Shown: in pieces, positions 8,287 through 20,569 of the stretch
Layout of the letters: each line of letters starts with the position of its first letter
How positions within the stretch are numbered: position 1 is the first letter of the stretch
Assembly: GCA_963702425.1 (NCBI GenBank)
Contig: CAVPCQ010000016.1
Coordinates: forward strand, 32,001 to 96,000
Direction of reading: 5' to 3'
Length of the DNA: 64,000 bases
DNA from: an uncultured Acidobacteriota bacterium
GTDB lineage: Bacteria > Acidobacteriota > Polarisedimenticolia > J045
Program-made: the position numbers and the translations under genes
Notes under the pieces: model-generated
Told to the model about the DNA's origin: nothing
The model's database searches: none
The model's input: only the letters and a program-made list of their open reading frames with translations

Positions 8287-8958
8287 CTACGACAGGGCCA
8301 CCTTCCGCCGCGAGCGCTCCATCCGCTCCCGCACCCGCTCCGCCACGTCCTCGGGCACCGGCCCGTGGTGCATCACGGCGCGGTCGAGGTCGATCACGTA
8401 GAGCGCGTCCTCGGAGCGCAGGATGTTGCCGAGGTTGAGGTCGCGGTGCTCGAGGCCACGCTCGAGCAGCAGCTCGCAGAAGCGCCGCGCCTCGTCCCAC
8501 AGCGCGGCGCGGCGCGCGGGGTCCCGCTCTTCCGCCAGCAGACGCGCCATGTCGATCGCGTCCTTCAGGAACGCGCTCATTCCCCAGGCCCGCCAGCCGG
8601 GCCGTGCCGGGAGCAGCACCACCCCCAGCGGTCGCGCGGTCGGGACGCCGGCCGCCGCGGCGAGCCGGCCGGTCTCCAGCTCCGCCACGAAGCGCTCGCA
8701 GTCGAAATAGCGCTCGCGGTTGAAGCTGGCGACGACGCCGCCGCGCAGGTACTGCTTGACCAGCAGCGCCGGTCCGCCGGGGATCGGCACCACGGCCCGC
8801 GGTCCGCGCCCGGTGCCCGGGCCGTCGGGTCGTGGCGCCAGCCGCTCCCAGGGCCGCCCGAGCCCGGCCGCCAGCACGGCGTCGGCGAGCGCCGCGTCGA
8901 GGACGCAGGTCGCTTCGCCCTCCTCGCGGACGACGAATCCCGGGGGGGCCACGATCAC
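8287..8958 (-). CDS. Lipopolysaccharide kinase, KdkA/Kdo-kinase-like
   Basis: KQYLRGG, RFVAEL, HRDLNLGNIL and VIDLDRA match Kdo/WaaP kinase motifs; GTG 8958 overlaps the upstream stop (GTGA). Confidence 0.78.
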   Translation of the reverse strand: MIVAPPGFVVREEGEATCVLDAALADAVLAAGLGRPWERLAPRPDGPGTGRGPRAVVPIPGGPALLVKQYLRGGVVASFNRERYFDCERFVAELETGRLAAAAGVPTARPLGVVLLPARPGWRAWGMSAFLKDAIDMARLLAEERDPARRAALWDEARRFCELLLERGLEHRDLNLGNILRSEDALYVIDLDRAVMHHGPVPEDVAERVRERMERSRRKVALS

Positions 8959-9779
8959 GCGTCCGGCCCCGCGGCGCTGCCGGCCCCGGCGCGTGGGTCG
9001 ATCGCCTCGCCCCCGGCGCGCGTCAGCTCCCAGAGCCGCGCGTATTTCATATAGACCGTCATCGCCGTGAAAGCGGCCAGCACCAGCCCCGGGCCGCCGT
9101 CGAGGAAGCCGCGCTTGAGCACGTACGCCCGCACGAAGCGCGCGATCGGCCGACTGAAGACGGTGAAGGCCGAGGCCCGCCGGCCGCGCCGGTGCGCCTC
9201 GCGCGCACCGGCCTCGGCCCAGCGCCAGGCTTTCGGCACGTACTGCGGGAAGGAGCGGAAGGTGTCGTGCAGCAGCGGCGCGGCCAGCGCCGGGAGCGGC
9301 CCGGGCAGATCGATCTCCTCGTGCACCAGCCGGTCGTCGTAGCGCGCCGTGTCGCGCGCGATCAGGCGGATCACCTTGTCCGTGCCCCAGCCGCCGTGCT
9401 TCATCACGCGCCCGAGGAAGCGGTTCTCGCGCGGGATCCAGCTCCCGGGCGCGGCCGGCCCGCCGGCGGCGAACAGCGCGCGCAGCTCGGAGGCCAGCGC
9501 GGGCGAGACCTGCTCGTCGGCGTCGAGGATCAGGACCCACGGGTGCTTGCACTGCGGGATCGCCCAGTTCTTCTGGCGGGCCGGCGACTCGTAGGGGTGC
9601 TCGAGGATCCGCGCGCCGTGCCCCAGCGCGAGCGCCAGCGTCCGGTCGGTCGAGCCGGAGTCGACGACCAGCAGCTCGCCTGCAAGGCCGGCCACGGACG
9701 CCAGGCAGGCTCCGATCGTCTGCTCCTCGTCGCGGGTGGTGACGAGCACCGAGATCGGCAGCGGCGGCGCGCCGCTCAC
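8955..9779 (-). CDS. Family 2 glycosyltransferase, LPS core (WaaE/KdtX-like)
   Basis: ISVLVTTRDEE, VVDSGSTDRT, QKNWA, WVLILDADE, VHE, GFLDG; GTG overlaps the tatC stop. Confidence 0.88.
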   Translation of the reverse strand: MSGAPPLPISVLVTTRDEEQTIGACLASVAGLAGELLVVDSGSTDRTLALALGHGARILEHPYESPARQKNWAIPQCKHPWVLILDADEQVSPALASELRALFAAGGPAAPGSWIPRENRFLGRVMKHGGWGTDKVIRLIARDTARYDDRLVHEEIDLPGPLPALAAPLLHDTFRSFPQYVPKAWRWAEAGAREAHRRGRRASAFTVFSRPIARFVRAYVLKRGFLDGGPGLVLAAFTAMTVYMKYARLWELTRAGGEAIDPRAGAGSAAGPDA

Positions 9780-10549
9780 TTCGCCTCGCTCCCCTTCGGC
9801 GCCCGCGGCTGCACGACCCACGCCACGCCGATGCTCAGCAGGTAGAGCCCGATCATCGGCAGGGCGAAGATCGTCATCGTCATCATGTCCGGCGTCGGGG
9901 TCAGGATCGCCGCCAGCACGAAGATCACGAAGATCGCCTTGTCGAGCTGCTTCCACAGGCCGCGCGCGCTGACGATCCCGAACCGCGCCAGCGCCAGGGC
10001 GAGCAGCGGCATCTCGAACATCAGCCCCAGGCCCAGCAGCAGCTTGCTGGCGAACGAGAAGGCGCTGTCGACGGTGATGTGGCTCTGGAACCCGGTCCCC
10101 TGGTCGGCCAGGAACTTCGCCGCCGTGGGGACCGCGACGTAGTAGGAGAAGGCCGCGCCGGCGGCGAAGAGCAAGCTGCCAGCGGTGATCACCGGCACGA
10201 TCCAGCGCCGCTCGCGCGGGTAGAGGCCGGGCGCGACGAAGGACCAGGCCTGGTAGAGGATCATCGGCAGGCCGATGAAGATCCCGCCCAGCAGCGCGGC
10301 CTTCATCTTGTTCATGAAGGCTTCGGCCGGACGGATCACGCTGAGCTGGCCCATCGCCTGCTGGATCGGGTCGAGCAGGAAGGCGAGCAGCCGGTCGGAG
10401 AAGATCCAGGCGACGACGAACCCGATGAACACGGCGGCGGCGGCCCAGGTGACCCGGCGGCGCAACTCGTCGAGGTGGTCGAGGAACCCCATCCTGGCGC
10501 CGGCCTCGCCGGCGTCGGGGGTCGGCTCCTCGACGGGGGGAACGGTCAC
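9776..10549 (-). CDS. tatC: Twin-arginine translocase subunit TatC
   Basis: MGFLDHLDELRRR, FVAPGLYPRERR, FEMP, AAILTPTPD. Confidence 0.97.
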   Translation of the reverse strand: MTVPPVEEPTPDAGEAGARMGFLDHLDELRRRVTWAAAAVFIGFVVAWIFSDRLLAFLLDPIQQAMGQLSVIRPAEAFMNKMKAALLGGIFIGLPMILYQAWSFVAPGLYPRERRWIVPVITAGSLLFAAGAAFSYYVAVPTAAKFLADQGTGFQSHITVDSAFSFASKLLLGLGLMFEMPLLALALARFGIVSARGLWKQLDKAIFVIFVLAAILTPTPDMMTMTIFALPMIGLYLLSIGVAWVVQPRAPKGSEAK

Positions 10550-10962: not shown

Positions 10963-11138
10963 CGCGGGCGCATCGTAGCGGCGCCCCCCCGGCGGGTCAA
11001 CAGAACGGCTCCGCCCCCGGAGCCGCAAGCCCTTGCCCCTCCGGCCCTTGCGTGGCGAGCGGTGCCGCTGCAGCGGTCCGGCCGACCGTCCGGCGAGGGC
11101 GATTGGGGCGAACTTCCGGCCCACCCTATACTTCCGGC

Positions 11139-12767
11139 ATGAAGCCCTCCCGCCCGCTGCTGGTCACGCTCCTCCTGGCGGCCCTCTTCGGGGCCTCCGC
11201 GATCGTCGTCGTCTCCCGCGCGGCCGCCCCGGCCGGGCCGACCCTGGGGAAGATGGGGACCTACGCCGAGATCCTCGCCCTGATCGAGGAGCGCGCGGTC
11301 CCCGAGCCCGACATGAAGCGGGTCATCTACTCCAGCATCGGCGGGATGCTCGACGTGCTCGACCCGCACACCAACTTCCTCGACGACGACAACTACCGCG
11401 AGATGCGCGAGGAGCAGAAGGGCTTCTTCTACGGGCTGGGGATCCAGATCAACAAGCGCGGCCGCTACCAGCCGCTGCGCGTCGTGGCCCCGATGGCCGG
11501 CACGCCGGCCGACCGGATGGGGATCCGCGGCGGCGACGTCATCGTGCACATCCGCGACGAGCGCGCGGGGGCCGACGTCGACACGCTGGGCCTGACGATC
11601 CAGGAGGCCGTGAAGTTCCTGCGCGGGCCGCGCGGCTCGGAGGTGGAGATCACCGTCGAGCGGCCGGGCGTCGAGGAGCCGCTGGTCTTCAAGATCCAGC
11701 GCGACGCGGTGCGCACCACGGCGGTCTCGCAGGCCTACCTGATCCGGCCCGAGACCGGCTACATCAAGATCACGAGCTTCGTCGAGAGCACCACCCCCGA
11801 GCTCGACGCCGCGATCGAGAGCCTGAAGAAGCAGGGCGCGAAGCGGCTGGTGCTCGACCTCTCCGGCAACCCGGGCGGCCTGCTCGACCAGGCGATCAAC
11901 GTCGCCAGCCGCTTCCTCCCCGCCGGCTCGCTCGTGGTCTACACCGAGGGCCGGATGGCCGGCTCGCGGCAGGACTACTTCTCGGCCAAGGACGTCCCGC
12001 ACGTCGAATGGCCGATCGTCGTGATGGTCGACCGCGAGGCGGCCTCCGCGTCGGAGATCGTCTCGGGCGCGCTGCAGGATCACGACCGCGGGATCGTCGT
12101 CGGCGAGACGACCTTCGGGAAGGGACTCGTGCAGTCGGTCTACCCGCTGTCCGAGAACACCGGCCTCGCGCTGACGACGCAGAAGTACTTCACCCCCGTG
12201 GGCCGCAGCATCCAGCGCCCCTACGCCGGCGAGGAGTCGTACTACCTCGAGTGGCGGGAGCGCGACGCGGTCCCGAAGCCGCGGGAGAATGCGCCGGTCT
12301 TCAAGACCGACACCGGGCGCACGGTCTACGGCGGCGGCGGCATCACGCCCGACGTGCCGGTGCAGATCCCGGAGTACCCCGAGGTCGTCGTCCAGCTGCT
12401 GCGGACCTCGGCCTTCCCGCGCTTCGTGACCACGCTCTCGGCGGCCGACCGGAAGAAGTACGCCGCCGACCCCGCGTCGATCCTCCCGCCGTTCACGACC
12501 TTCGTGCTGGCCGATCTGCCCGACGCCAAGGCCGAGGAGATCGCCGCCGCCAAGGACGACATCCTGGTCCAGCTGAAGGGCGAGATGGCGCTGCTCGAGG
12601 GCGGGCTCGCCGCGCGCGAGCGGGTCCTGCTCGAGAAGAACCCGGTGCTCGAGAAGGCGCTGGCCTCGTTCCCCGAGGCCGAGAAGCTGCAGAGCCTGCG
12701 CCGGGCGCTGCCGGAGACGCGGACCCAGACTGCGGAAGCGAGCGGGACCCCCGCTCAGACCAGGTAG
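11139..12767 (+). CDS. S41 carboxy-terminal processing protease (CtpA/Prc-like) with PDZ domain
   Basis: Signal peptide, LDPHT, GLGI, LVLDLSGNPGGLL, ASASEIVSGALQD, TFGKGLVQ. Confidence 0.95.
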   Translation: MKPSRPLLVTLLLAALFGASAIVVVSRAAAPAGPTLGKMGTYAEILALIEERAVPEPDMKRVIYSSIGGMLDVLDPHTNFLDDDNYREMREEQKGFFYGLGIQINKRGRYQPLRVVAPMAGTPADRMGIRGGDVIVHIRDERAGADVDTLGLTIQEAVKFLRGPRGSEVEITVERPGVEEPLVFKIQRDAVRTTAVSQAYLIRPETGYIKITSFVESTTPELDAAIESLKKQGAKRLVLDLSGNPGGLLDQAINVASRFLPAGSLVVYTEGRMAGSRQDYFSAKDVPHVEWPIVVMVDREAASASEIVSGALQDHDRGIVVGETTFGKGLVQSVYPLSENTGLALTTQKYFTPVGRSIQRPYAGEESYYLEWRERDAVPKPRENAPVFKTDTGRTVYGGGGITPDVPVQIPEYPEVVVQLLRTSAFPRFVTTLSAADRKKYAADPASILPPFTTFVLADLPDAKAEEIAAAKDDILVQLKGEMALLEGGLAARERVLLEKNPVLEKALASFPEAEKLQSLRRALPETRTQTAEASGTPAQTR

Positions 12768-13804
12768 GCCAGCGCGAACCCGACCTGCGCGGTCATCATC
12801 ATCAGGTACATGTGGGTCCACGACGGGTGGTTCTCCGTCGTCGCCAGCGCCTCGGGGTCGCGCAGGATCAGCCAGACGGTATAGGCGCCCCAGCTCGTCA
12901 GGAGCAGACCCAGCGCGTCGAGCGCCCAGCGGTTGCCGGTCAGGATCGCGTGGTGGCCCGCGGGATCGAAGGGGTCGGCCAGCAGCGTGCCGAGCGGGAT
13001 CAGCAGCCACGGCAGGACGAACGACGGCGCCATCATGACGGCGGCTCGCTTCACGCCGTAGCGGATCGGCAGCGTGTAGCAGCCCCCTTCCGCGTCCCCC
13101 TTCATGTCCGAGAAGTCCTTGGTGGAGGCGGCGCCGACCAGGAACAGCGCGAAGACCGCGCCGATGTACCAGGCCTCGAGCGCCCAGACCGGGCCGATCA
13201 TGCTCCAGCCGGCGACCTTGAGCAGCATCCCGCGCGGGATCGCGATCGTCACGTTGGCCCCGATCGCGTGGCGCTTGGTGCGGCCGAGCGCCGGGGCCGA
13301 ATAGACGAAGGTGAAGATCATTCCCAGGACGTAGATCACGAAGACCGCGTGCCAGAGCGTCAGCGCACCCGCCCACCCGCCCGCCCCGGCGAGCGAGGCG
13401 CGGACGCCGCCCGGCACCGTCAGGCGCTCGGCGAGGGTCTGCGCCGGGTAGATCACGACCAGCCAGGTCGGCAGCACCGCGGCGAGGTAGAGCACGATCG
13501 AGTAGTTCCACGCCGAGCGCATCGAGATCTTCCCCGACGGCAGCATCCGCTCCGGCTTGTTGATCCGGTCGATCGGCAGGTCGTAGTACTGGTTGATCAC
13601 GTTGCTCGCGGCGTTCAGCAGCGCGGCGCAGGCCGAGCCGAGCACGACGTTGAACAGCAGCGCGGCGGTGACGGCGCGCGTGGGATCGGGGTTCCAGTAG
13701 GAGCCCCAGGCGCAGATCGCGCCCGAGATCACGCCCAGCAGCGGCGGCAGGAGCGTGAAGGGGCGCGTGAAGTCGACGTAGCGTCGGAGCGTGTCCATCA
13801 TCAC
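12755..13804 (-). CDS. UbiA-superfamily prenyltransferase (homogentisate prenyltransferase / DGGGPS-like)
   Basis: FTRPFT, first Asp-rich motif NQYYDLPIDRINKPERMLPSG, YSAP..RTKR, second motif KDFSDMKGD..G.YTLP; multiple TM helices. Confidence 0.9.
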   Translation of the reverse strand: MMMDTLRRYVDFTRPFTLLPPLLGVISGAICAWGSYWNPDPTRAVTAALLFNVVLGSACAALLNAASNVINQYYDLPIDRINKPERMLPSGKISMRSAWNYSIVLYLAAVLPTWLVVIYPAQTLAERLTVPGGVRASLAGAGGWAGALTLWHAVFVIYVLGMIFTFVYSAPALGRTKRHAIGANVTIAIPRGMLLKVAGWSMIGPVWALEAWYIGAVFALFLVGAASTKDFSDMKGDAEGGCYTLPIRYGVKRAAVMMAPSFVLPWLLIPLGTLLADPFDPAGHHAILTGNRWALDALGLLLTSWGAYTVWLILRDPEALATTENHPSWTHMYLMMMTAQVGFALAYLV

Positions 13805-13823
13805 GGTCGGTGTCCTGGGCGCG

Positions 13824-15170
13824 TCAGGCGGCGACGAGGGAAGCGATCAGGATCGCGACCAGGCCGCCGGCGAGCGTGTTGAGGAAGTTCTGGGCTTCGT
13901 TGTCGATCAGCTTGGCCTGCTCGAGCAGCGCGCCGAGGTAGCTCTCCAGCGTCGTGCCGACGAACGCCGCCGCGGCGACGATCGCGACCCCGCTCCCGTC
14001 GATCAGCCCGACCGCCCAGCCGAGCAGGCCGAGCACGATCGAACCGGCGATCCCGGCCAGCGTCCCCTCGAGGCTGACCGCGCCGTCGGTGCCGCGTGGC
14101 ACCGGGCGGAAGGTCGTGATCAGGAAGGTGCGGCGGCCGAAGGCCTGCCCGATCTCCGAGCCCAGCGTGTCCGACGCCGCGGTGGCGAGCGCCGCCACGA
14201 AAGCCAGCCGGAACAGGCCGTTCCCCTGCGCCGCGCCGAAGGCCAGCGCGGCGAAGAGGGCCGGCGCCCCGGCGTTGGCCCAGGCGTGCGCCGCGCCGCG
14301 GCGGCCCCCCTTGGCCTGCGCGGTCCCCTCCTTCGCCTTGGTGCGGTAGCCGACCTTGGTCGCGCCCGAGCCGAGCACGAAGAAGGCCAGCAGGATCGCG
14401 AAGCCGCCCGGGCCGAGACAGAGCCAGATCGCCGTCCCGAGCAGCACGCCGTGGATCACGCCCGAGAGGTCGACGGTCTTCAGCGCGTAGGCCAGGCCGG
14501 CGGCGGCGAGGTTCGCGCCGAGCGCCCAGGGCAGCCGCGCGAGCAGGAGGTCCTGCGCGCCCGCGATCCGCGAGAGGTCGATCAGCTGCGCCGCGTAGAG
14601 CAGGCCGCCGGCGGCCAGCGGCACGAGCAGGTTGTCGTTGATCCCGGTGTCGAGGCTCTCCAGGACCGCCAGCACCAGGCCGACGGCAAGGAACTTCAGC
14701 GCGATCGCCGGCGTGATCGCCCAGCCGCCGGTCCAGGCGAAGAGCGCCAGCGCCATCGGCACGCCGGCGACGACGAAGCCGGTGAAGCCCGCCCAGGTCT
14801 TCTCGCGGTTCCACGGGAGCGGTCCGCTGGCGGGCCCGAAGGCCCGGCCGGCGATCGTCGCCAGCCCGTCGCCGAAGGCCAGGAAGGCCCACGCCGCGGC
14901 AACGATGTCGAGCCGGTGCGGGAAGACCAGGATCAGGATCAGCACCGAGACCGCGTAGAGCACGATCCCGACGTCGAGGCCGCGTTCCTTCGCTTCGCCG
15001 CGGAAGAACTGCCGGCGCCCGAGGCGCGGCAGCACGAACAGGTTGTTGGCCAGGGCGACGAGCGCGCAGAGTGCCGCCTGCCACCAGGTGAGGTAGCGCA
15101 GCAGGAAGGCGAAGCCGCCCATCGAGATGTGCAGGAGCTTGCGGGCCAGGTCGCTGCGGAGCGCGCTCAC
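13824..15170 (-). CDS. Fusion of a phytol/farnesol/dolichol-kinase-like domain and a DUF92 (TMEM19/VTE6-like) domain
   Basis: N-terminal half: ARKLLH, FGDGLATIAG, PWNREKTWAG, INDNLLVP. C-terminal half: GRRGAAHAWAN, ASDTLGSEIG, VPRGTDGAVSLEGT, ESYLGA, NFLNT. GTG overlaps the upstream stop. Confidence 0.85.
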   Translation of the reverse strand: MSALRSDLARKLLHISMGGFAFLLRYLTWWQAALCALVALANNLFVLPRLGRRQFFRGEAKERGLDVGIVLYAVSVLILILVFPHRLDIVAAAWAFLAFGDGLATIAGRAFGPASGPLPWNREKTWAGFTGFVVAGVPMALALFAWTGGWAITPAIALKFLAVGLVLAVLESLDTGINDNLLVPLAAGGLLYAAQLIDLSRIAGAQDLLLARLPWALGANLAAAGLAYALKTVDLSGVIHGVLLGTAIWLCLGPGGFAILLAFFVLGSGATKVGYRTKAKEGTAQAKGGRRGAAHAWANAGAPALFAALAFGAAQGNGLFRLAFVAALATAASDTLGSEIGQAFGRRTFLITTFRPVPRGTDGAVSLEGTLAGIAGSIVLGLLGWAVGLIDGSGVAIVAAAAFVGTTLESYLGALLEQAKLIDNEAQNFLNTLAGGLVAILIASLVAA

Positions 15171-16159
15171 GACTTCACCCGCGCGGGACCGGCGTCGATC
15201 AGCCAGCGCACCATCGCCGTCAGCCCGTCCCGGGCCGGCGTCACCGTGTAGCCCAGCTCGCGCTCGGCGCGCGCCGAGCTGAGCGCCCACTCGTGGCGGT
15301 AGATCGCGACCTCCCCGTCGGTCATCATCGGCTCGATCCCGGTCAGCGGCGCCTGCCAGCGCAGCACGCGGCCGAGGGCAGCCGCCACGCCGTACGGGAT
15401 CGCCCGCGACGGCGCGCGCACGCCGCCGGCTTCGGCCATGATCGCGAGCGCCTCGCGGACCGTGATGTTCTCGCCGCCGAGGACGTAGCGCGATCCGGCC
15501 TGCGCCTTTTCCAGCGCGAGCAGGAACCCGCGCGCGACGTCGTCCACCTGCGCCAGGCACTGCCGGCGGTCGCCGGGGCCGACGGTGCCGGGCAGCTTCC
15601 CCGCGAGCAGGTCGCGCGCCACGCCGGCGAGGATGTTCCCGTCCGTCAGGCGCCCCGGCCCGTAGACCACCCCCGGGTAGACCACGACCAGGTTCTCGCC
15701 TCCGGCCTGCCGCTCGCGCGCCCGCCGGTCGGCGGCCAGCTTCGTGCGCTCGTAGTCGTTGCGCGGCGCGCCGTCGTGGACGTTGTCCTCGTCGCCGATC
15801 CGGCCGTCGGTCGGACCCAGGGCGATGAACGACGAGCAGTAGATCGCCTTCCCCACCCCGGCCGCCCGGGCCGCGTCGAGCAGCCGGTCGAGCCCCTCGA
15901 CGTTGACGCGGTCGAAGCGCGCGGGGTCTCTGACCCAGCGTTTGACCAGGGCCGCGCAGTGCACGACGGCGTCGCGCCCGGCGACTGCCGCAGCGAGCGA
16001 CGGGCCGTCTTCGACGTCTCCGCGCAGGACCTCGAAGGGGCCCTGCGGCGCCGCCTCGGGCCGGCGCGCCAGCAGCGCCACCCGGTGCCCCGCGGCGGAG
16101 AGGACCTCCGCCACGCGCCCGCCGAGGAAGCCGGTGCCGCCGGTGAGCAGGACCTTCAC
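15167..16159 (-). CDS. Extended SDR / NAD-dependent epimerase-dehydratase, farnesol dehydrogenase (FLDH)/HpnA-like
   Basis: VLLTGGTGFLG, HCAALV, CSSFIALG, YERTK (YxxxK), YPGVVYGPG, ELGY. Confidence 0.88.
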   Translation of the reverse strand: MKVLLTGGTGFLGGRVAEVLSAAGHRVALLARRPEAAPQGPFEVLRGDVEDGPSLAAAVAGRDAVVHCAALVKRWVRDPARFDRVNVEGLDRLLDAARAAGVGKAIYCSSFIALGPTDGRIGDEDNVHDGAPRNDYERTKLAADRRARERQAGGENLVVVYPGVVYGPGRLTDGNILAGVARDLLAGKLPGTVGPGDRRQCLAQVDDVARGFLLALEKAQAGSRYVLGGENITVREALAIMAEAGGVRAPSRAIPYGVAAALGRVLRWQAPLTGIEPMMTDGEVAIYRHEWALSSARAERELGYTVTPARDGLTAMVRWLIDAGPARVKS

Positions 16160-17049
16160 GACACGCCCTGCGGCGGAAACTCGGCCAGGTACTCGCGCGC
16201 CGCGTCGGTCCACGGCCGCGGGACCCAGCCGAAGCGGCCCGCGAACAGCCCGGTCGCGAGCGGGGTCGCCGCCGGACGCGCCGCCGGCAGGTCGAGCGAC
16301 TCCGGCGCGACGGGCTCGACCCGCGCCGGATCGCCCCCCGCCAGCCGGACCACCTCGCGCGCGAAGGCGAAGCGCGAGACGGCTCCGCCGTTGGCGAAGT
16401 GGAACAGGCCGGTCGCGTCGGGATCGGTGATCAGCGCCTCGATCGCGCGCGCGATGTCGCGGTTGTAGGTCGGCTTGGTGACCCAGCCGTCGATCGACCG
16501 GATCGCGCCCCCGCCCGCGACCGCTTCGCGTGCGATCCGGTCGAAGAAGGTCTCGCGCCCGGGGCCGAAGACGAACGAGATCCGCAGCACGACCGCGTCC
16601 GCCAGCTTGCTGAGGATCGCCTCCTCCCCGTGGAGCTTGCTGCGCCCGTAGGCGTTGACCGGCGCGGTGAGGTCCTCCTCGACGTACTCGCGCCCGGCCG
16701 TCCCGTCAAAGACGTAGTCGGTCGAGATGTGAATCAGCCGCCGGCGGCCGCGCGTGCAGATCGCGGCCAGGTTCGCGGCCCCCTCGGCGTTGACCTCCTC
16801 CGCCGTCTCGGGATCCTGCTCGGCCTCGTCGACGTTCGACATCGCGGCGCAGTTGATGACCACCGTCGGGTCGAGGCGCTCGATGTCCAGCTCCGTCGCC
16901 CACCGGTCGGCGATGTCCATTTCCGTCCGCGAGGCGGAGACGGTGTGCGGGAAGCGCGCCTCGAGCCGCCCGGCCAGGGCGCTGCCGACGAGGCCGTCGG
17001 CGCCGATGATCATCGGCCGGATCGCAAGGTTGGGGTCGGTGGCGGTCAC
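16156..17049 (-). CDS. rfbD: dTDP-4-dehydrorhamnose reductase-like (RmlD/RfbD)
   Basis: GADGLVG, VINCAAMSNVDEAE, HISTDYVFDG, YGRSKLHGE, PAARP. Confidence 0.85.
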   Translation of the reverse strand: MTATDPNLAIRPMIIGADGLVGSALAGRLEARFPHTVSASRTEMDIADRWATELDIERLDPTVVINCAAMSNVDEAEQDPETAEEVNAEGAANLAAICTRGRRRLIHISTDYVFDGTAGREYVEEDLTAPVNAYGRSKLHGEEAILSKLADAVVLRISFVFGPGRETFFDRIAREAVAGGGAIRSIDGWVTKPTYNRDIARAIEALITDPDATGLFHFANGGAVSRFAFAREVVRLAGGDPARVEPVAPESLDLPAARPAATPLATGLFAGRFGWVPRPWTDAAREYLAEFPPQGVS

Positions 17050-17089
17050 GCGCGGATTCTAGCAAGGAAGCGGACGGGCGCCGGGCCCG

Positions 17090-19576
17090 TCAGTTCCCGA
17101 CCTCCTGATTGAGGTCGAACAGCTTGCCGATCCCGGAGAGGTTGACCGTCAGGAGCAGGTTCCGGCGGTTGTTGTCGACGAAGTTCCGCGTGTCGAGCCC
17201 GAGCTGGATCGAGCAGCACTGCGTCGTCCAGCGCAGCTGGTAGAGGTAGTGGTCGAGCTGCGAGGTCTCGAGGTTGTAGTCCCAGGCCGCCTCGAGCGAC
17301 AGGCCGCGCACGATCCGCGCGATCCCCAGCTGCGTGCGCAGGAAGTCCGTCGGGAGGTCGAGCGGCCGGACGGAATTGCGCTTGTACCACGAGCCGCGGA
17401 AGTAGCCGCCGCGGAACCCCATCATCGCCGAGATGCTGGTCTCGGCCAGCTTGTCGTTGGCGACGTCGAAGACGTAGGAGAGGTCGACCGACTGCTGGTA
17501 GGTCGGGTTGAAGCGGCCGGTGATCGCGATCGGGGAGTACTGCCGCGTGTCGACGATCTGCTGCCGGTTCAGCGACTCGCCGGTTGTCGGGTCGACGAGC
17601 AGCGCCCAGAGGTTGCTCAGCGGCTGGTCGAGCGAGTACTGCTGCGAGATCTGCAGGCTGCCGATCTCGGTCGGTGTCAGGTTCTCCGCGACCTCGATCG
17701 CCTCGGCCACACCGGGCTTGCCGGCCTCCTCGAGGGCGCGGCGGGCCTCTCTCGCCGACTGCTCCTCGAGGTCGGAGAGCGAGAGCTTCTCGGTCGAGGG
17801 GACGCCGAAGGTGCGGCCGGTGTCGGGCCCACGCAGCGCATAGAAGCGGGTCCGCACGCCGTAGGTGAAGAGCGAGAGCTGGCCCGGGACGGTGTCGACG
17901 TCGTCGAACGGGATGATCTTCAGCGGGTCGATCCCCGAGTCGGGACGCCAGTCGTAGCGGAAGAACGGCTCGACGACGTTCTTGAGCTTCGGGGAGAAAC
18001 CCCACCGCGGGGTCTCCCAGACGCGCTGGAAGCGCGGCCCGATGAAGCCGATCCCGACGTTCCACAGGGTGCGCGTCAGGTTCTCGTTCACGAACACCGG
18101 GGCCCGGCGCGGCGGCTCGCCCGGTCCCGGCGGCGGGAGCTGCTGCGCCGTGTAGTGGGTCCAGCGCCCGCCGGCATTGATCGTCAGGTCGGCCCACGGG
18201 ACGTTCAGGAGCGGCATCTGGAGTTGCGGAAAGACGTCGATCCGCTGCCAGGTGACGTCCGCCAGGGTCAGCAGATCGTCCTCGTTCTTCTCGCCGGCCG
18301 TGCCCTCGGGGGGGCCGAGGATGGCCCGCCGGAAGCTGCCGGCCGACCCCTCGAAGAGCACGAAGACCGGCGAGCGGCCGATCCGGTGGCTGGCGCTGCG
18401 GATCTCGAGCTCGGGTCGCCTTTCGTTGATCGTCTCGCGCGCGATCAGGGTCTCGTCCGTCAGGAGGTTGGTGATCGGAAAGTACTGCTTGAGCCGGCTG
18501 GCCCGCGCCGCGAGCGAGTACCAGGACCACTGCCGCGTCAGGTCGAGCCAGGAGGAAACCTGCGGGTTCGAGGCCTCGTCGAGGTCGACGACGTAGTCGG
18601 TCAGGTAGTCGAAGTCGGACAGCGCCTCGAGCTGCAGGCGCATCTTCCAGGTGTCGCCGAGCGGCTGGACCTGGCGCCACTCCCCGATGTAGCGGTTCTC
18701 GGCACGGTCCGTGTCGCGGATGTAGTTCGCGATCCCCCGGGCCCGGCCGCGCCAGGTCGGGAACCAGTTCAGCTCCGCTCCCAGTCCGGGGCCGACCTGG
18801 CTGTGCCAGTCGAAGAGCAGCAACAGGTCGGCGTTGTCGGCGAAGGCCCAGAAGAACGGCACCGAGATCGTCTGCCCGAGCGTGGTCGAGGTGCTGAACG
18901 AGGGGAACAGCAGGCCCGTGGCGCGGTCGGTCTTGATCGGCCAGATGAGGTAGGGGGTGTAGAAGATCGGGACCTTGCCGACCCTGAACGCGGCGTCGCG
19001 GAGGTGCGCGTACTGGCCGATCGTCAGCGTCGCGCTGCGGACCCGGAACGACCAGTAGGGGGTCGGCTGGCTGCAGGTGGTGAACGTTGCGTGGGTGACG
19101 CGCAGGTCCTGCGGCCCGATCCGCTCGATCGTCGCCGCGCGCACGACCGCGTTGTCCTGGTCGAGGTAGCCGACCGCTTCCTCGACGACGCCGAGCTGGG
19201 TCTCGATGTTGTAGACCAGCCGGGTGCCGGAGAGCGTCGCGCCCGGAAAGGCGAGCACGACGTTGCCGGTCGCCACGACCTGCCGGGTGGCTACCGTGTA
19301 GACGATCTCGTCGGCCTGGATCGAGCTGTCGCCGGCCTTCAGGTCGACGTAGCCGCTGAGGCGCCACTCCGTCTCGGTGCGCACGGCCTGGCCGGCCCGC
19401 AAGGACGCCGACTCGGGCAGCTCCAGCTGAAGCTCGGGCTTCGCCATGCGCGGCTCCTCGGCGAGCGCCGGGAGCAACGCGGAAAGGATCGCCAGGAGCG
19501 CGCAAGCGAGGAGCAGACCGCTGCGGCCCGCCGGGCGCAACACGCCGGCGGCCGCCGGGTGACGCTCCGACGGCAT
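17090..19576 (-). CDS. lptD: LPS-assembly outer-membrane protein LptD
   Basis: Signal peptide, OstA-like beta-jellyroll, ATFTTCS..TPYWSF, VPIFYTPY..RATGLLFP, C-terminal QCCS. Start at MPSERH is inferred. Confidence 0.88.
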   Translation of the reverse strand: MPSERHPAAAGVLRPAGRSGLLLACALLAILSALLPALAEEPRMAKPELQLELPESASLRAGQAVRTETEWRLSGYVDLKAGDSSIQADEIVYTVATRQVVATGNVVLAFPGATLSGTRLVYNIETQLGVVEEAVGYLDQDNAVVRAATIERIGPQDLRVTHATFTTCSQPTPYWSFRVRSATLTIGQYAHLRDAAFRVGKVPIFYTPYLIWPIKTDRATGLLFPSFSTSTTLGQTISVPFFWAFADNADLLLLFDWHSQVGPGLGAELNWFPTWRGRARGIANYIRDTDRAENRYIGEWRQVQPLGDTWKMRLQLEALSDFDYLTDYVVDLDEASNPQVSSWLDLTRQWSWYSLAARASRLKQYFPITNLLTDETLIARETINERRPELEIRSASHRIGRSPVFVLFEGSAGSFRRAILGPPEGTAGEKNEDDLLTLADVTWQRIDVFPQLQMPLLNVPWADLTINAGGRWTHYTAQQLPPPGPGEPPRRAPVFVNENLTRTLWNVGIGFIGPRFQRVWETPRWGFSPKLKNVVEPFFRYDWRPDSGIDPLKIIPFDDVDTVPGQLSLFTYGVRTRFYALRGPDTGRTFGVPSTEKLSLSDLEEQSAREARRALEEAGKPGVAEAIEVAENLTPTEIGSLQISQQYSLDQPLSNLWALLVDPTTGESLNRQQIVDTRQYSPIAITGRFNPTYQQSVDLSYVFDVANDKLAETSISAMMGFRGGYFRGSWYKRNSVRPLDLPTDFLRTQLGIARIVRGLSLEAAWDYNLETSQLDHYLYQLRWTTQCCSIQLGLDTRNFVDNNRRNLLLTVNLSGIGKLFDLNQEVGN

Positions 19577-19693
19577 CGCTCTCCTCCGTGAGTCGCGGAA
19601 GAATAGCGAGTTCGTCGCCGCGGCATCAACCTTCCGCGCCCCGGGGCGGTCCCGCGGGGCCGGTGCTACCATCCCGCCCCCGGAGGATCGCGC

Positions 19694-20569
19694 GTGCGGA
19701 TCGCCCTGGCCCAGACCGACCCGCGCCTCGCGGACGTCGAGGCCAACCTCGCCGGGATCGAGGAAACGGTGGCCGCGGCCCTCGCCGGCGGCGCCGACCT
19801 CGCGGTCTTCCCCGAGCTGGCGCTGACCGGTTATCGGCTGCGCGATCTGGTGCCGCAGGTCGCGGTGCGGCTCGACCGCGCGGGGCCGGTGCGCGACCGG
19901 CTCGCGGCCCTCTCCGAGCGCCTGCCGTTCGTCGTCGGGCTGGTCGAGGAGTCGGCCGACCACCGCTTCTACAACGCGGCGGCCTGGTTCGAGGACGGCC
20001 GGCTGGTCCACGTCCACCGCAAGGTCTACCTCCCGACCTACGGGATGTTCGACGAAGCGATGGACTTCGCCCGCGGCCGCCGGCTGGCGGCGTTCGACAC
20101 CCGCTTCGGGCGGGCCGGCATCCTGGTCTGCGAAGACCTCTGGCACCCGACCGCGACGACCGTCCTGGCGCTCGACGGGGCGGTCATGGTCTACGGGATC
20201 GCGGCCAGCCCGCTGCGCGGCCAGGGGGTCGGCTCGGCCGACCCGTCGCACCTTTCGGGCCGGCAGTTGGCCGAGGTCCTGGCGCGCTTCCACACCGTGC
20301 CGGTGGTCTACGTCAACCGCAGCGGGTACGAGGAGGGGCTGGCCTTCGGCGGCGGCAGCTTCGCGATCGGCGCGATGGGCGAGACGCTGGCCGAGGCGCC
20401 GCTGCTCGAGCCGGCGCTGGTGATCGCGACGATCGACCCCGACCGGACCCGCGCTGCGCGCGCGGCCTACCCGCTGGTGCGCGACGAGCGGCCGGGCCTG
20501 CTGGCGCGCGAGCTGCGGCGGATCGCGCGGGGCGAGGGGCTCGAGGCGGACGAGGAGGACGGGCGATGA
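19694..20569 (+). CDS. Carbon-nitrogen hydrolase; probable glutaminase subunit of a two-subunit NAD synthetase
   Basis: E-K-C triad motifs FPEL, HRKVYLP, LVCEDLW; ATGA overlap with nadE. Confidence 0.88.
   Translation: MRIALAQTDPRLADVEANLAGIEETVAAALAGGADLAVFPELALTGYRLRDLVPQVAVRLDRAGPVRDRLAALSERLPFVVGLVEESADHRFYNAAAWFEDGRLVHVHRKVYLPTYGMFDEAMDFARGRRLAAFDTRFGRAGILVCEDLWHPTATTVLALDGAVMVYGIAASPLRGQGVGSADPSHLSGRQLAEVLARFHTVPVVYVNRSGYEEGLAFGGGSFAIGAMGETLAEAPLLEPALVIATIDPDRTRAARAAYPLVRDERPGLLARELRRIARGEGLEADEEDGR

Follow-up and report, generated by a model that had tools for sequence, protein, structure and literature searches.

Exported proteins of the alkaline phosphatase (AlkP) superfamily with a Ser/Thr nucleophile, such as LtaS, OpgB, EptA and PIG-O/N, take a group from a membrane lipid, and a kinase recycles the lipid alcohol. 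LtaS and OpgB release diacylglycerol, which is recycled by DgkB and DgkA, respectively. In Halobacterium salinarum, the alkaline-phosphatase-fold proteins Agl30 and Agl31 sulfate envelope glycans (PMC11980604); the main text of that paper does not contain the terms "PAPS" (3'-phosphoadenosine 5'-phosphosulfate) or "sulfate donor". In plants, prenol is salvaged by VTE5 and VTE6 (PMC9782597, PMC13415981). Here we analyse a unit of four minus-strand genes in a stretch of 64,000 nucleotides from an uncultured Acidobacteriota bacterium (hereafter the window, G000:C16:32001-96000; the source genome, G000, is 91% complete). The unit comprises an rmlD-like gene (gene 1), a gene for a short-chain dehydrogenase/reductase (SDR) of the extended type (gene 2), a fusion of a predicted prenol kinase to a DUF92 domain (gene 3) and a gene for a UbiA-superfamily prenyltransferase (gene 4). 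The UbiA gene, the core of what we call module A, is tied to an exported AlkP encoded outside the window and is almost exclusive with a second gene set, module B. This link is new, and a search of the literature, with most subscription papers and the bioRxiv supplements lying outside it, returned no paper on the module or on the A/B exclusion.

The phylum set consisted of 251 Acidobacteriota genomes, each at least 90% complete (one row, G061, is an unpublished genome, and no claim depends on it alone). The UbiA gene was found in 82 of them, and 81 of these 82 also carry the kinase-DUF92 fusion, within 3 kb of the UbiA gene in 58 and on another contig in 23. A profile search with the UbiA protein, covering 1.84 billion representatives, returned three divergent proteins in which UbiA is fused to a PF01663 AlkP-superfamily domain (P0137, P0223 and P0257, from Deltaproteobacteria, an unnamed lineage and Planctomycetota). 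The nine transmembrane helices modelled for UbiA would place the fused AlkP domain outside. In G000, a stand-alone member of this AlkP family is encoded at G000:C6:385265-382962. The family, of 650-750 aa, is present in 154/251 genomes, including 81 of the 82 UbiA genomes, 78 of which have it as one copy; with five candidates scored per genome, 78 of the 84 single-copy AlkP genomes are UbiA-positive and 67 of the 70 multi-copy genomes are UbiA-negative. The AlkP gene directly follows the UbiA gene in 6 of 80 metagenome loci, which probably represent one lineage, and in two further loci (L119, L120) it heads the same operon as the fusion and the UbiA gene. In a low-GC lineage (L205, L207, L214, L221, L225 and L239) a two-gene UbiA-AlkP unit lies near V-type ATPase-like genes, with no kinase gene in the stretch fetched. 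The gene following UbiA in L253 and L254 was considered as a further case, and is not an AlkP.

No close solved structure and no NCBIfam model was found for the AlkP family. Judged by hydropathy in 13 proteins, the main single-copy type combines a signal peptide with an internal transmembrane hairpin, and all rows of a 38-row alignment keep the metal-site motifs and a Ser/Thr nucleophile and have no formylglycine motif. The protein is thus exported and membrane-tethered with an intact metal site, as are the lipid-donor transferases of the LtaS/OpgB kind. By analogy with these, and given the fusions and the phyletic pattern, it may transfer a lipid-borne group to an acceptor in the envelope.

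Module B consists of an AlkP (B1), an exported AlkP (B2), a 63-aa protein and a 276-aa membrane protein. In 12/12 loci read (L158-L168 and L177) the tandem AlkP pair is followed by the genes for the 63-aa and 276-aa proteins, with one extra small gene between in L164; the 63-aa protein ends in an LxxLGY tail. The 276-aa protein had no Pfam or NCBIfam match, and served as the independent marker by which module B was scored. Hydropathy gives B1 a signal peptide and a transmembrane helix, so that its domain probably faces the cytoplasm, and B2 a signal only. In a quick tree of 38 rows with two long fused branches, B1 and B2 formed one clade (SH-aLRT 100), apart from the single and fused AlkP copies.

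We found module B in 70/251 genomes, and both modules together in only two (G070 and G081), against 22.9 expected. Of the 154 genomes with AlkP, 149 have A or B, and of the 150 with A or B, 149 have AlkP. Six families (f1, f10, f13, f57, f60 and f68) each contain pure-A and pure-B genomes. Moreover, each of 24 genomes of the same class carries exactly one module, split 18 to 6. Among 41 relatives, which partly overlap the 251, a B-type AlkP was present in 0/33 UbiA-positive and 6/8 UbiA-negative genomes; G029 (85% complete) and G032 (89% complete) have neither B-type AlkP nor UbiA. Since related genomes are not independent, Fisher P values overstate these associations, and we rely instead on the switches between A and B within families.

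Could the genes share no pathway and merely be passengers of one ancient synteny block of Acidobacteriota (nadE-memo-lptD-rml)? DUF92 lies beside UbiA in 58 of 80 genome loci (many on short contigs). An LptD cluster is present at 32 of the 80 and at 20 of 80 metagenome loci. Across classes the module closes an operon of lptD, rmlA/C/B and rmlD or gmd-like genes. This context points to the envelope, although the block also holds housekeeping genes: nadE, memo, clpB and grpE are likewise conserved beside UbiA. Their conservation would suit a synteny block, as would the 23/81 genomes in which UbiA and the fusion are on different contigs. We nevertheless give this explanation very little credence, as the joint presence and absence persists when the genes lie apart, and the protein fusions and the within-family A/B switch need a functional link. 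The conservation of the reductase, kinase-DUF92 and UbiA trio in Acidobacteriota bears out what had been expected of its neighbourhood in the preliminary description, an earlier annotation of the window that saw in these genes a linear route from prenal through prenol, prenyl phosphate and prenyl diphosphate to a homogentisate prenyltransferase-like step.

Gene 4 (13804-12755, minus strand; 349 aa, with an alternative ATG start at 13801) matches PF01040 and is very conserved. The motifs quoted for it earlier are all in the translation, the YS..P..R.KR block with one extra residue. Placed by profile scores, it falls among ChlG, PRK12884, DGGGPS and HPT, and it passes no NCBIfam subfamily cut-off. 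Its model is nine-helical, the best Foldseek match being the DGGGPS structure 6M31, with 21% identity. Going by these scores, gene 4 is assigned to an uncharacterised UbiA subfamily in the ChlG/DGGGPS/HPT neighbourhood; named members of the family come from Deltaproteobacteria, Planctomycetota and Thermoplasmata. Chlorophyll synthase (ChlG/BchG) was rejected, with 97-132 bits against a cut-off of 313 and no chlorophyllide-synthesis genes found; searches of G000 for the H subunit of Mg-chelatase (BchH) and for a type I reaction centre (PsaA/B) gave no match.

Homogentisate prenylation, towards a tocochromanol or a plastoquinone-like compound, is scarcely credible as the function of gene 4. In its favour are the first motif, NQxxD, and a helix-5 Arg, which we take to resemble those of HPT/HST; in addition, G000 itself has 4-hydroxyphenylpyruvate dioxygenase (HPPD) over the cut-off. 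The HPT model NF009525, however, was never the best model, with 54.7 bits for gene 4 and 88-109 bits for five shorter orthologs against a cut-off of 226. HPPD shows no enrichment with UbiA (22/82 UbiA genomes and 60/169 others, P 0.2) and is missing from 60 of the 82, and no tocopherol cyclase was found in G000. This end of the earlier route is accordingly largely refuted. We also consider very improbable an archaeal-type ether lipid, for which gene 4 would be the digeranylgeranylglyceryl phosphate (DGGGP) synthase. Although 6M31 is the best solved match by both sequence and fold, and Thermoplasmata members carry an automatic DGGGPS name, gene 4 gave 87 and 67 bits (64-96 overall) against cut-offs of 296 and 353. 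Moreover, no PcrB-type geranylgeranylglyceryl phosphate (GGGP) synthase (PF01884) was found in G000, whereas both genes are present in the bacteria described as using the archaeal route (PMC7852524).

Gene 3 (15170-13824, minus strand; 448 aa) is composed of an N-terminal half (14571..15170), predicted to be a CTP (cytidine triphosphate)-dependent prenol kinase like VTE5, FOLK, PolK and Sec59, and a C-terminal DUF92/COG1836 half (13824..14510), a predicted VTE6-like prenyl-phosphate kinase. The latter matches PF01940 with 191.8 bits over residues 221-435 and passes the TIGR00297 cut-off (208.7 against 205.85 bits), and a DUF92 domain is present in 61/61 fusion orthologs; the half thus belongs with VTE6/COG1836 by family, and its kinase activity is predicted. 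The N-terminal half has no Pfam match in the protein itself, and PF01148 matches 8 of the 61 orthologs (best 9e-7). R10, H14, D101, E171 and D179 are invariant in the 61 sequences, and the RKxxH clamp, the GDG motif, E171 and D179-N180 are invariant or nearly so. The spacing of R10-K11-x-x-H14 is that of the clamp R29-K30-H33 in PfPolK of Plasmodium (10.1101/2023.07.17.549440). In this clamp and its GDG motif the half agrees with the CTP-transferase-clan domain expected of the VTE5/FOLK/PolK group. A fold search of the fusion found nothing at E 0.001, residues 4-197 being without a clear fold match, and the best structural rows for the DUF92 half were both modest (CarS, 5GUF, Z 6.7; CdsA, 4Q2E, Z 5.8). 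In two proteins that look like triple fusions of kinase, DUF92 and UbiA (P0295 and P0301) the junctions appear out of frame, and we discounted both as probably frameshifted; a third, P0179, is uncertain. The family assignments support the earlier view of gene 3 as a CTP-dependent prenol-kinase-type domain fused to DUF92. The front half of the chemistry proposed with it, from prenal to prenyl diphosphate, holds as a prediction from families and motifs, and only the homogentisate/tocochromanol end fails.

Gene 2 (16159-15167, minus strand; 330 aa) resembles FLDH, HpnA and Gox2253 and is predicted to encode a carbonyl reductase. Its tetrad (N86, S109, Y136 and K140) is invariant. The best solved relative of the SDR profile was Gox2253 (3WJ7) with 253 bits, and sugar epimerases reached at most 121 bits. 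Gene 2 thus sides with the lipophilic-carbonyl reductases, as had been thought, and not with the nucleotide-sugar epimerases; an extended SDR with an N-S-Y-K tetrad, nearer to aldehyde reductases than to sugar epimerases, is what membership of the FLDH group calls for. Gox2253 itself is reportedly active on aldehydes. Among 120 matches, 28/28 with JGI names were called farnesol dehydrogenase, automatic names that are no independent test, and eight NCBI names were generic. HpnA was rejected (TIGR03466, 215.6 bits and 196-222 across the family, against a cut-off of 367.65), and no squalene-hopene cyclase was found in G000. An SDR ortholog, at a cut of E 1.6e-53 that was picked after viewing the ranking to exclude HpnA-type paralogs (top 43 of 75 genomes), is present in 43/251 genomes, 41 of them UbiA-positive (41/82). 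Since the SDR is an optional member of the module, what is conserved is not the linear route of four steps.

The desaturase partner is also optional. UbiA is fused to a PF00487 desaturase/hydroxylase in P0127, P0242, P0287 and P0288, and G000 has a stand-alone homolog at G000:C29:30875-31873 (L143:9876-10871, plus strand), a putative, uncharacterised membrane di-iron desaturase/hydroxylase with weak matches to GntB, DesB and CrtR. The desaturase occurs in 40/251 genomes, all 40 UbiA-positive, which suggests an optional step of the UbiA pathway. An oxidative cycle, with the desaturase cleaving a prenyl ether and the SDR using the resulting aldehyde, was not supported, as the two occur together in 15 genomes against 20 expected. 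P0242 (715 aa) is a divergent desaturase-UbiA fusion with an insertion resembling a read-through intron; possibly the protein is eukaryotic, which would imply transfer of the fused gene.

From these gene families, motifs, fusions, adjacency, co-occurrence and exclusion we propose that the trio forms the cytoplasmic half of a relay in which a lipid carrier serves to decorate the cell envelope, a reading whose chances we put at about even. UbiA would O-alkylate a small oxyanion, X, with a prenyl diphosphate, in the manner of the oxygen alkylations by ChlG and DGGGPS. The product, prenyl-O-X, would cross the inner membrane, and the exported, membrane-tethered AlkP would transfer X to an envelope glycan, releasing the prenol. 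The cycle would be closed by the fused kinase-DUF92 protein, through two CTP-dependent phosphorylations of the prenol. The SDR, by rescuing oxidised carrier, and the di-iron desaturase/hydroxylase would provide optional tailoring. Modules A and B would differ in how a lipid is loaded at the cytoplasmic face, and both would supply an exported transferase of one kind. Every reaction is proposed on sequence grounds, and so are carrier, cargo (X), acceptor and flip; X is most likely sulfate or a phospho-headgroup, about evenly split. With DXR and three polyprenyl synthases, G000 has de novo isoprenoid synthesis and so needs no salvage for its prenyl diphosphates. Given this, a near-obligate double kinase has to be fed continually with free prenol, as the relay would do. 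The relay would also explain the UbiA-AlkP fusions, as well as the replacement of UbiA and the kinases by a cytoplasm-facing AlkP.

Several points weigh against the relay, in addition to the copy counts from five candidates per genome, the quick AlkP tree and the kinship of the genomes mentioned above. We know of no UbiA enzyme that alkylates phosphate or sulfate. In G000 and most relatives the AlkP gene is not near UbiA and precedes envC-ctpA-yibQ. The fusion occurs without UbiA in 13 genomes, 7 of them with module B. G070 and G081 carry both modules, G077 has UbiA without an AlkP match, G081 has UbiA without the kinase fusion, and G015, G242 and G259 keep a single-type AlkP alongside B. Finally, a shared role for A and B is what the exclusion demonstrates; it does not demonstrate a shared cargo. 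The UbiA gene of G081 (G081:C28:207761-208723, L126), in a module-B genome and an unrelated neighbourhood, is possibly a transferred or repurposed copy.

The distribution of adenosine 5'-phosphosulfate (APS) kinase bears on the cargo. In counts that cover the A-only and B-only genomes, with G000 and G061 omitted and no background from genomes with neither module, APS kinase is present in 66/68 B-only genomes, those of 2 Mb included, and in 45/78 A-only genomes, with none in any member of 15 of 35 families. It lies within 10 kb of module B in 16 genomes of 8 families, and the neighbours of module B in 12 loci include sulfotransferases (5), sulfatases (4) and ATP sulfurylase (3). By this distribution, B would seem to be a relay across the inner membrane that draws on PAPS, and A does not seem to need it. 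Shorter PF01663 proteins without a signal peptide are interleaved with sat and cysC at L167:1749-5073 and L164:11713-12996, a hint that the family handles sulfate. It is possible, though we lean against it, that the cargo of module A is sulfate: UbiA would join prenyl diphosphate and inorganic sulfate to give prenyl sulfate, AlkP would sulfate envelope glycans, and two CTP would recharge the carrier. Sulfate would then be activated without ATP sulfurylase or PAPS, sulfate alkylation would be a new reaction for the UbiA superfamily, and module A would be a counterpart, without homology, of module B as an AlkP relay fed by PAPS. Against sulfate stand the missing background just noted, the cysNC-like genes of G000 with their sulfotransferase-like neighbours, the Ser or Thr nucleophile of the AlkP, and the nearest solved relatives of the AlkP family, which are, weakly, phosphodiesterases of the nucleotide pyrophosphatase/phosphodiesterase (NPP) type (ENPP1, E 2e-6).

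The NPP-type relatives, together with the Ser/Thr nucleophile and the lack of a formylglycine motif, would suit a different scheme, in which the product of UbiA, a prenylated alcohol or phenol, is itself the carrier: the kinases would phosphorylate it and AlkP would pass its phosphate to lipid A or a glycan, A and B putting phosphate or sulfate on the same site. LpxT, which transfers phosphate from undecaprenyl diphosphate, offers an analogy, and the lptD and rml/gmd neighbours would fit. We hold this scheme to be decidedly unlikely: the kinase halves resemble enzymes whose substrates are isoprenoid alcohols in free form and the corresponding monophosphates, some UbiA-AlkP operons have no kinase gene next to them, and module B has no obvious carrier-making gene in the 12 loci. 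Salvage into a stable lipid is unlikely too. Here the kinases would recycle prenol from turnover or the environment, UbiA would build a stable prenylated ester or ether lipid, and AlkP would only trim the lipid or use its phosphate. The families and motifs are in keeping with this, plants use VTE5 and VTE6 in just this way, and a desaturase that is fused to UbiA and confined to UbiA genomes would be expected of lipid tailoring. It leaves unexplained, however, why kinases accompany UbiA in 81/82 genomes despite de novo synthesis and why genomes that lose UbiA gain a module with a cytoplasm-facing AlkP and a link to APS kinase.

The organisation of the four-gene unit agrees with the preliminary description, its minus-strand open reading frames, GTGA overlaps, quoted motifs and TAGAAT -10 box all being found in the sequence. 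Gene 1 (17049-16156, minus strand; 297 aa) encodes a dTDP-4-dehydrorhamnose reductase-like protein, with 227.5 bits for TIGR01214 (RmlD) against a cut-off of 224.05. It is a remnant of the lptD-rml/gmd sugar operon in which the module sits; rmlD lies beside UbiA in 41/80 genome loci, and other lineages have rmlA/B/C and gmd-like genes there. The GTGA stop/start overlaps are at 16159-16156 and 15170-15167, and 19-22 bp separate the end of gene 3 from the start of gene 4. An extended -10 element, TGC-TAGAAT (17064..17056, minus strand; TAGAAT at 17061-17056), lies 6 nt ahead of the rmlD GTG. A sigma-70 scan gave no full promoter and no -35 element with it. Only 12 TANNAT hexamers occur on both strands of the window, and, judged by eye, 9 of 18 related loci have a -10-like hexamer (TAGAAT, TATCCT, TATCTT or GATAAT) 6-9 nt ahead of the rmlD start. 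The element is probably the leaderless start of a four-gene transcript, as judged from its position. A G+C hairpin seen by eye at 17074-17090 (minus strand), between the lptD stop and the -10 element, was not called by a terminator scan of the window; it may separate lptD from the four-gene unit.

The conserved upstream neighbour, lptD (17090..20293, minus strand; PF04453), is given as its longest open frame, the true start lying further in. On the other side, an S41 peptidase gene (11052-12767, plus strand) is convergent with the UbiA gene and overlaps its stop by 13 bp; this neighbour occurs in 7/80 loci. A GT2 glycosyltransferase gene and a gene for a 3-deoxy-D-manno-octulosonic acid (Kdo)/WaaP-type kinase (8287-9956, minus strand), following tatB-tatC, are further lipopolysaccharide-related genes near the module.

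One or the other of two uncharacterised modules, interchangeable and feeding a single family of exported enzymes, is thus present in about 60% of the sampled Acidobacteriota genomes (150/251), which makes for a common envelope pathway without known chemistry; the UbiA family reaches Planctomycetota, Deltaproteobacteria and Thermoplasmata too. Through the AlkP link, a testable job can be assigned to the orphan UbiA subfamily and to the VTE5-VTE6 fusion of bacteria, and the link would explain prenol kinases in a non-phototroph. If the cargo were sulfate, module A would also answer how glycans are sulfated beyond the inner membrane.

Compared with the relays of the LtaS and OpgB type, the carrier here would be a prenol charged by UbiA, and the AlkP is of the 650-750 aa PF01663 family. 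Agl30 and Agl31 are described as sulfatase-like, with no prenyl module in the account given (PMC11980604), and the comparison of our AlkP family with them goes by that description. Prenol salvage in plants and cyanobacteria (FLDH, VTE5/FOLK and VTE6, with PfPolK) involves the same three families, the same clamp motif and the same predicted chemistry (PMC9782597, PMC13415981, 10.1101/2023.07.17.549440). Here, however, the kinases are fused, the SDR is optional, the UbiA is of another subfamily tied to an exported AlkP, and no chlorophyll, tocopherol or homogentisate context was found in this analysis. The archaeal COG0170-COG1836 fusions (arCOG02245, for example Mbar_A3310) have the same two-domain kinase and are linked to isoprenoid synthesis (PMC5898192), but their conserved neighbour is uppS (PMC5898192), whereas here it is UbiA, inside an lptD-sugar operon. 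ChlG and DGGGP synthase are the nearest characterised UbiA subfamilies, and both alkylate an oxygen with an allylic diphosphate, yet gene 4 scores well under half of the cut-off for most models. By analogy, then, the module would work like the lipid-donor relays while being a member of none of the families tested.

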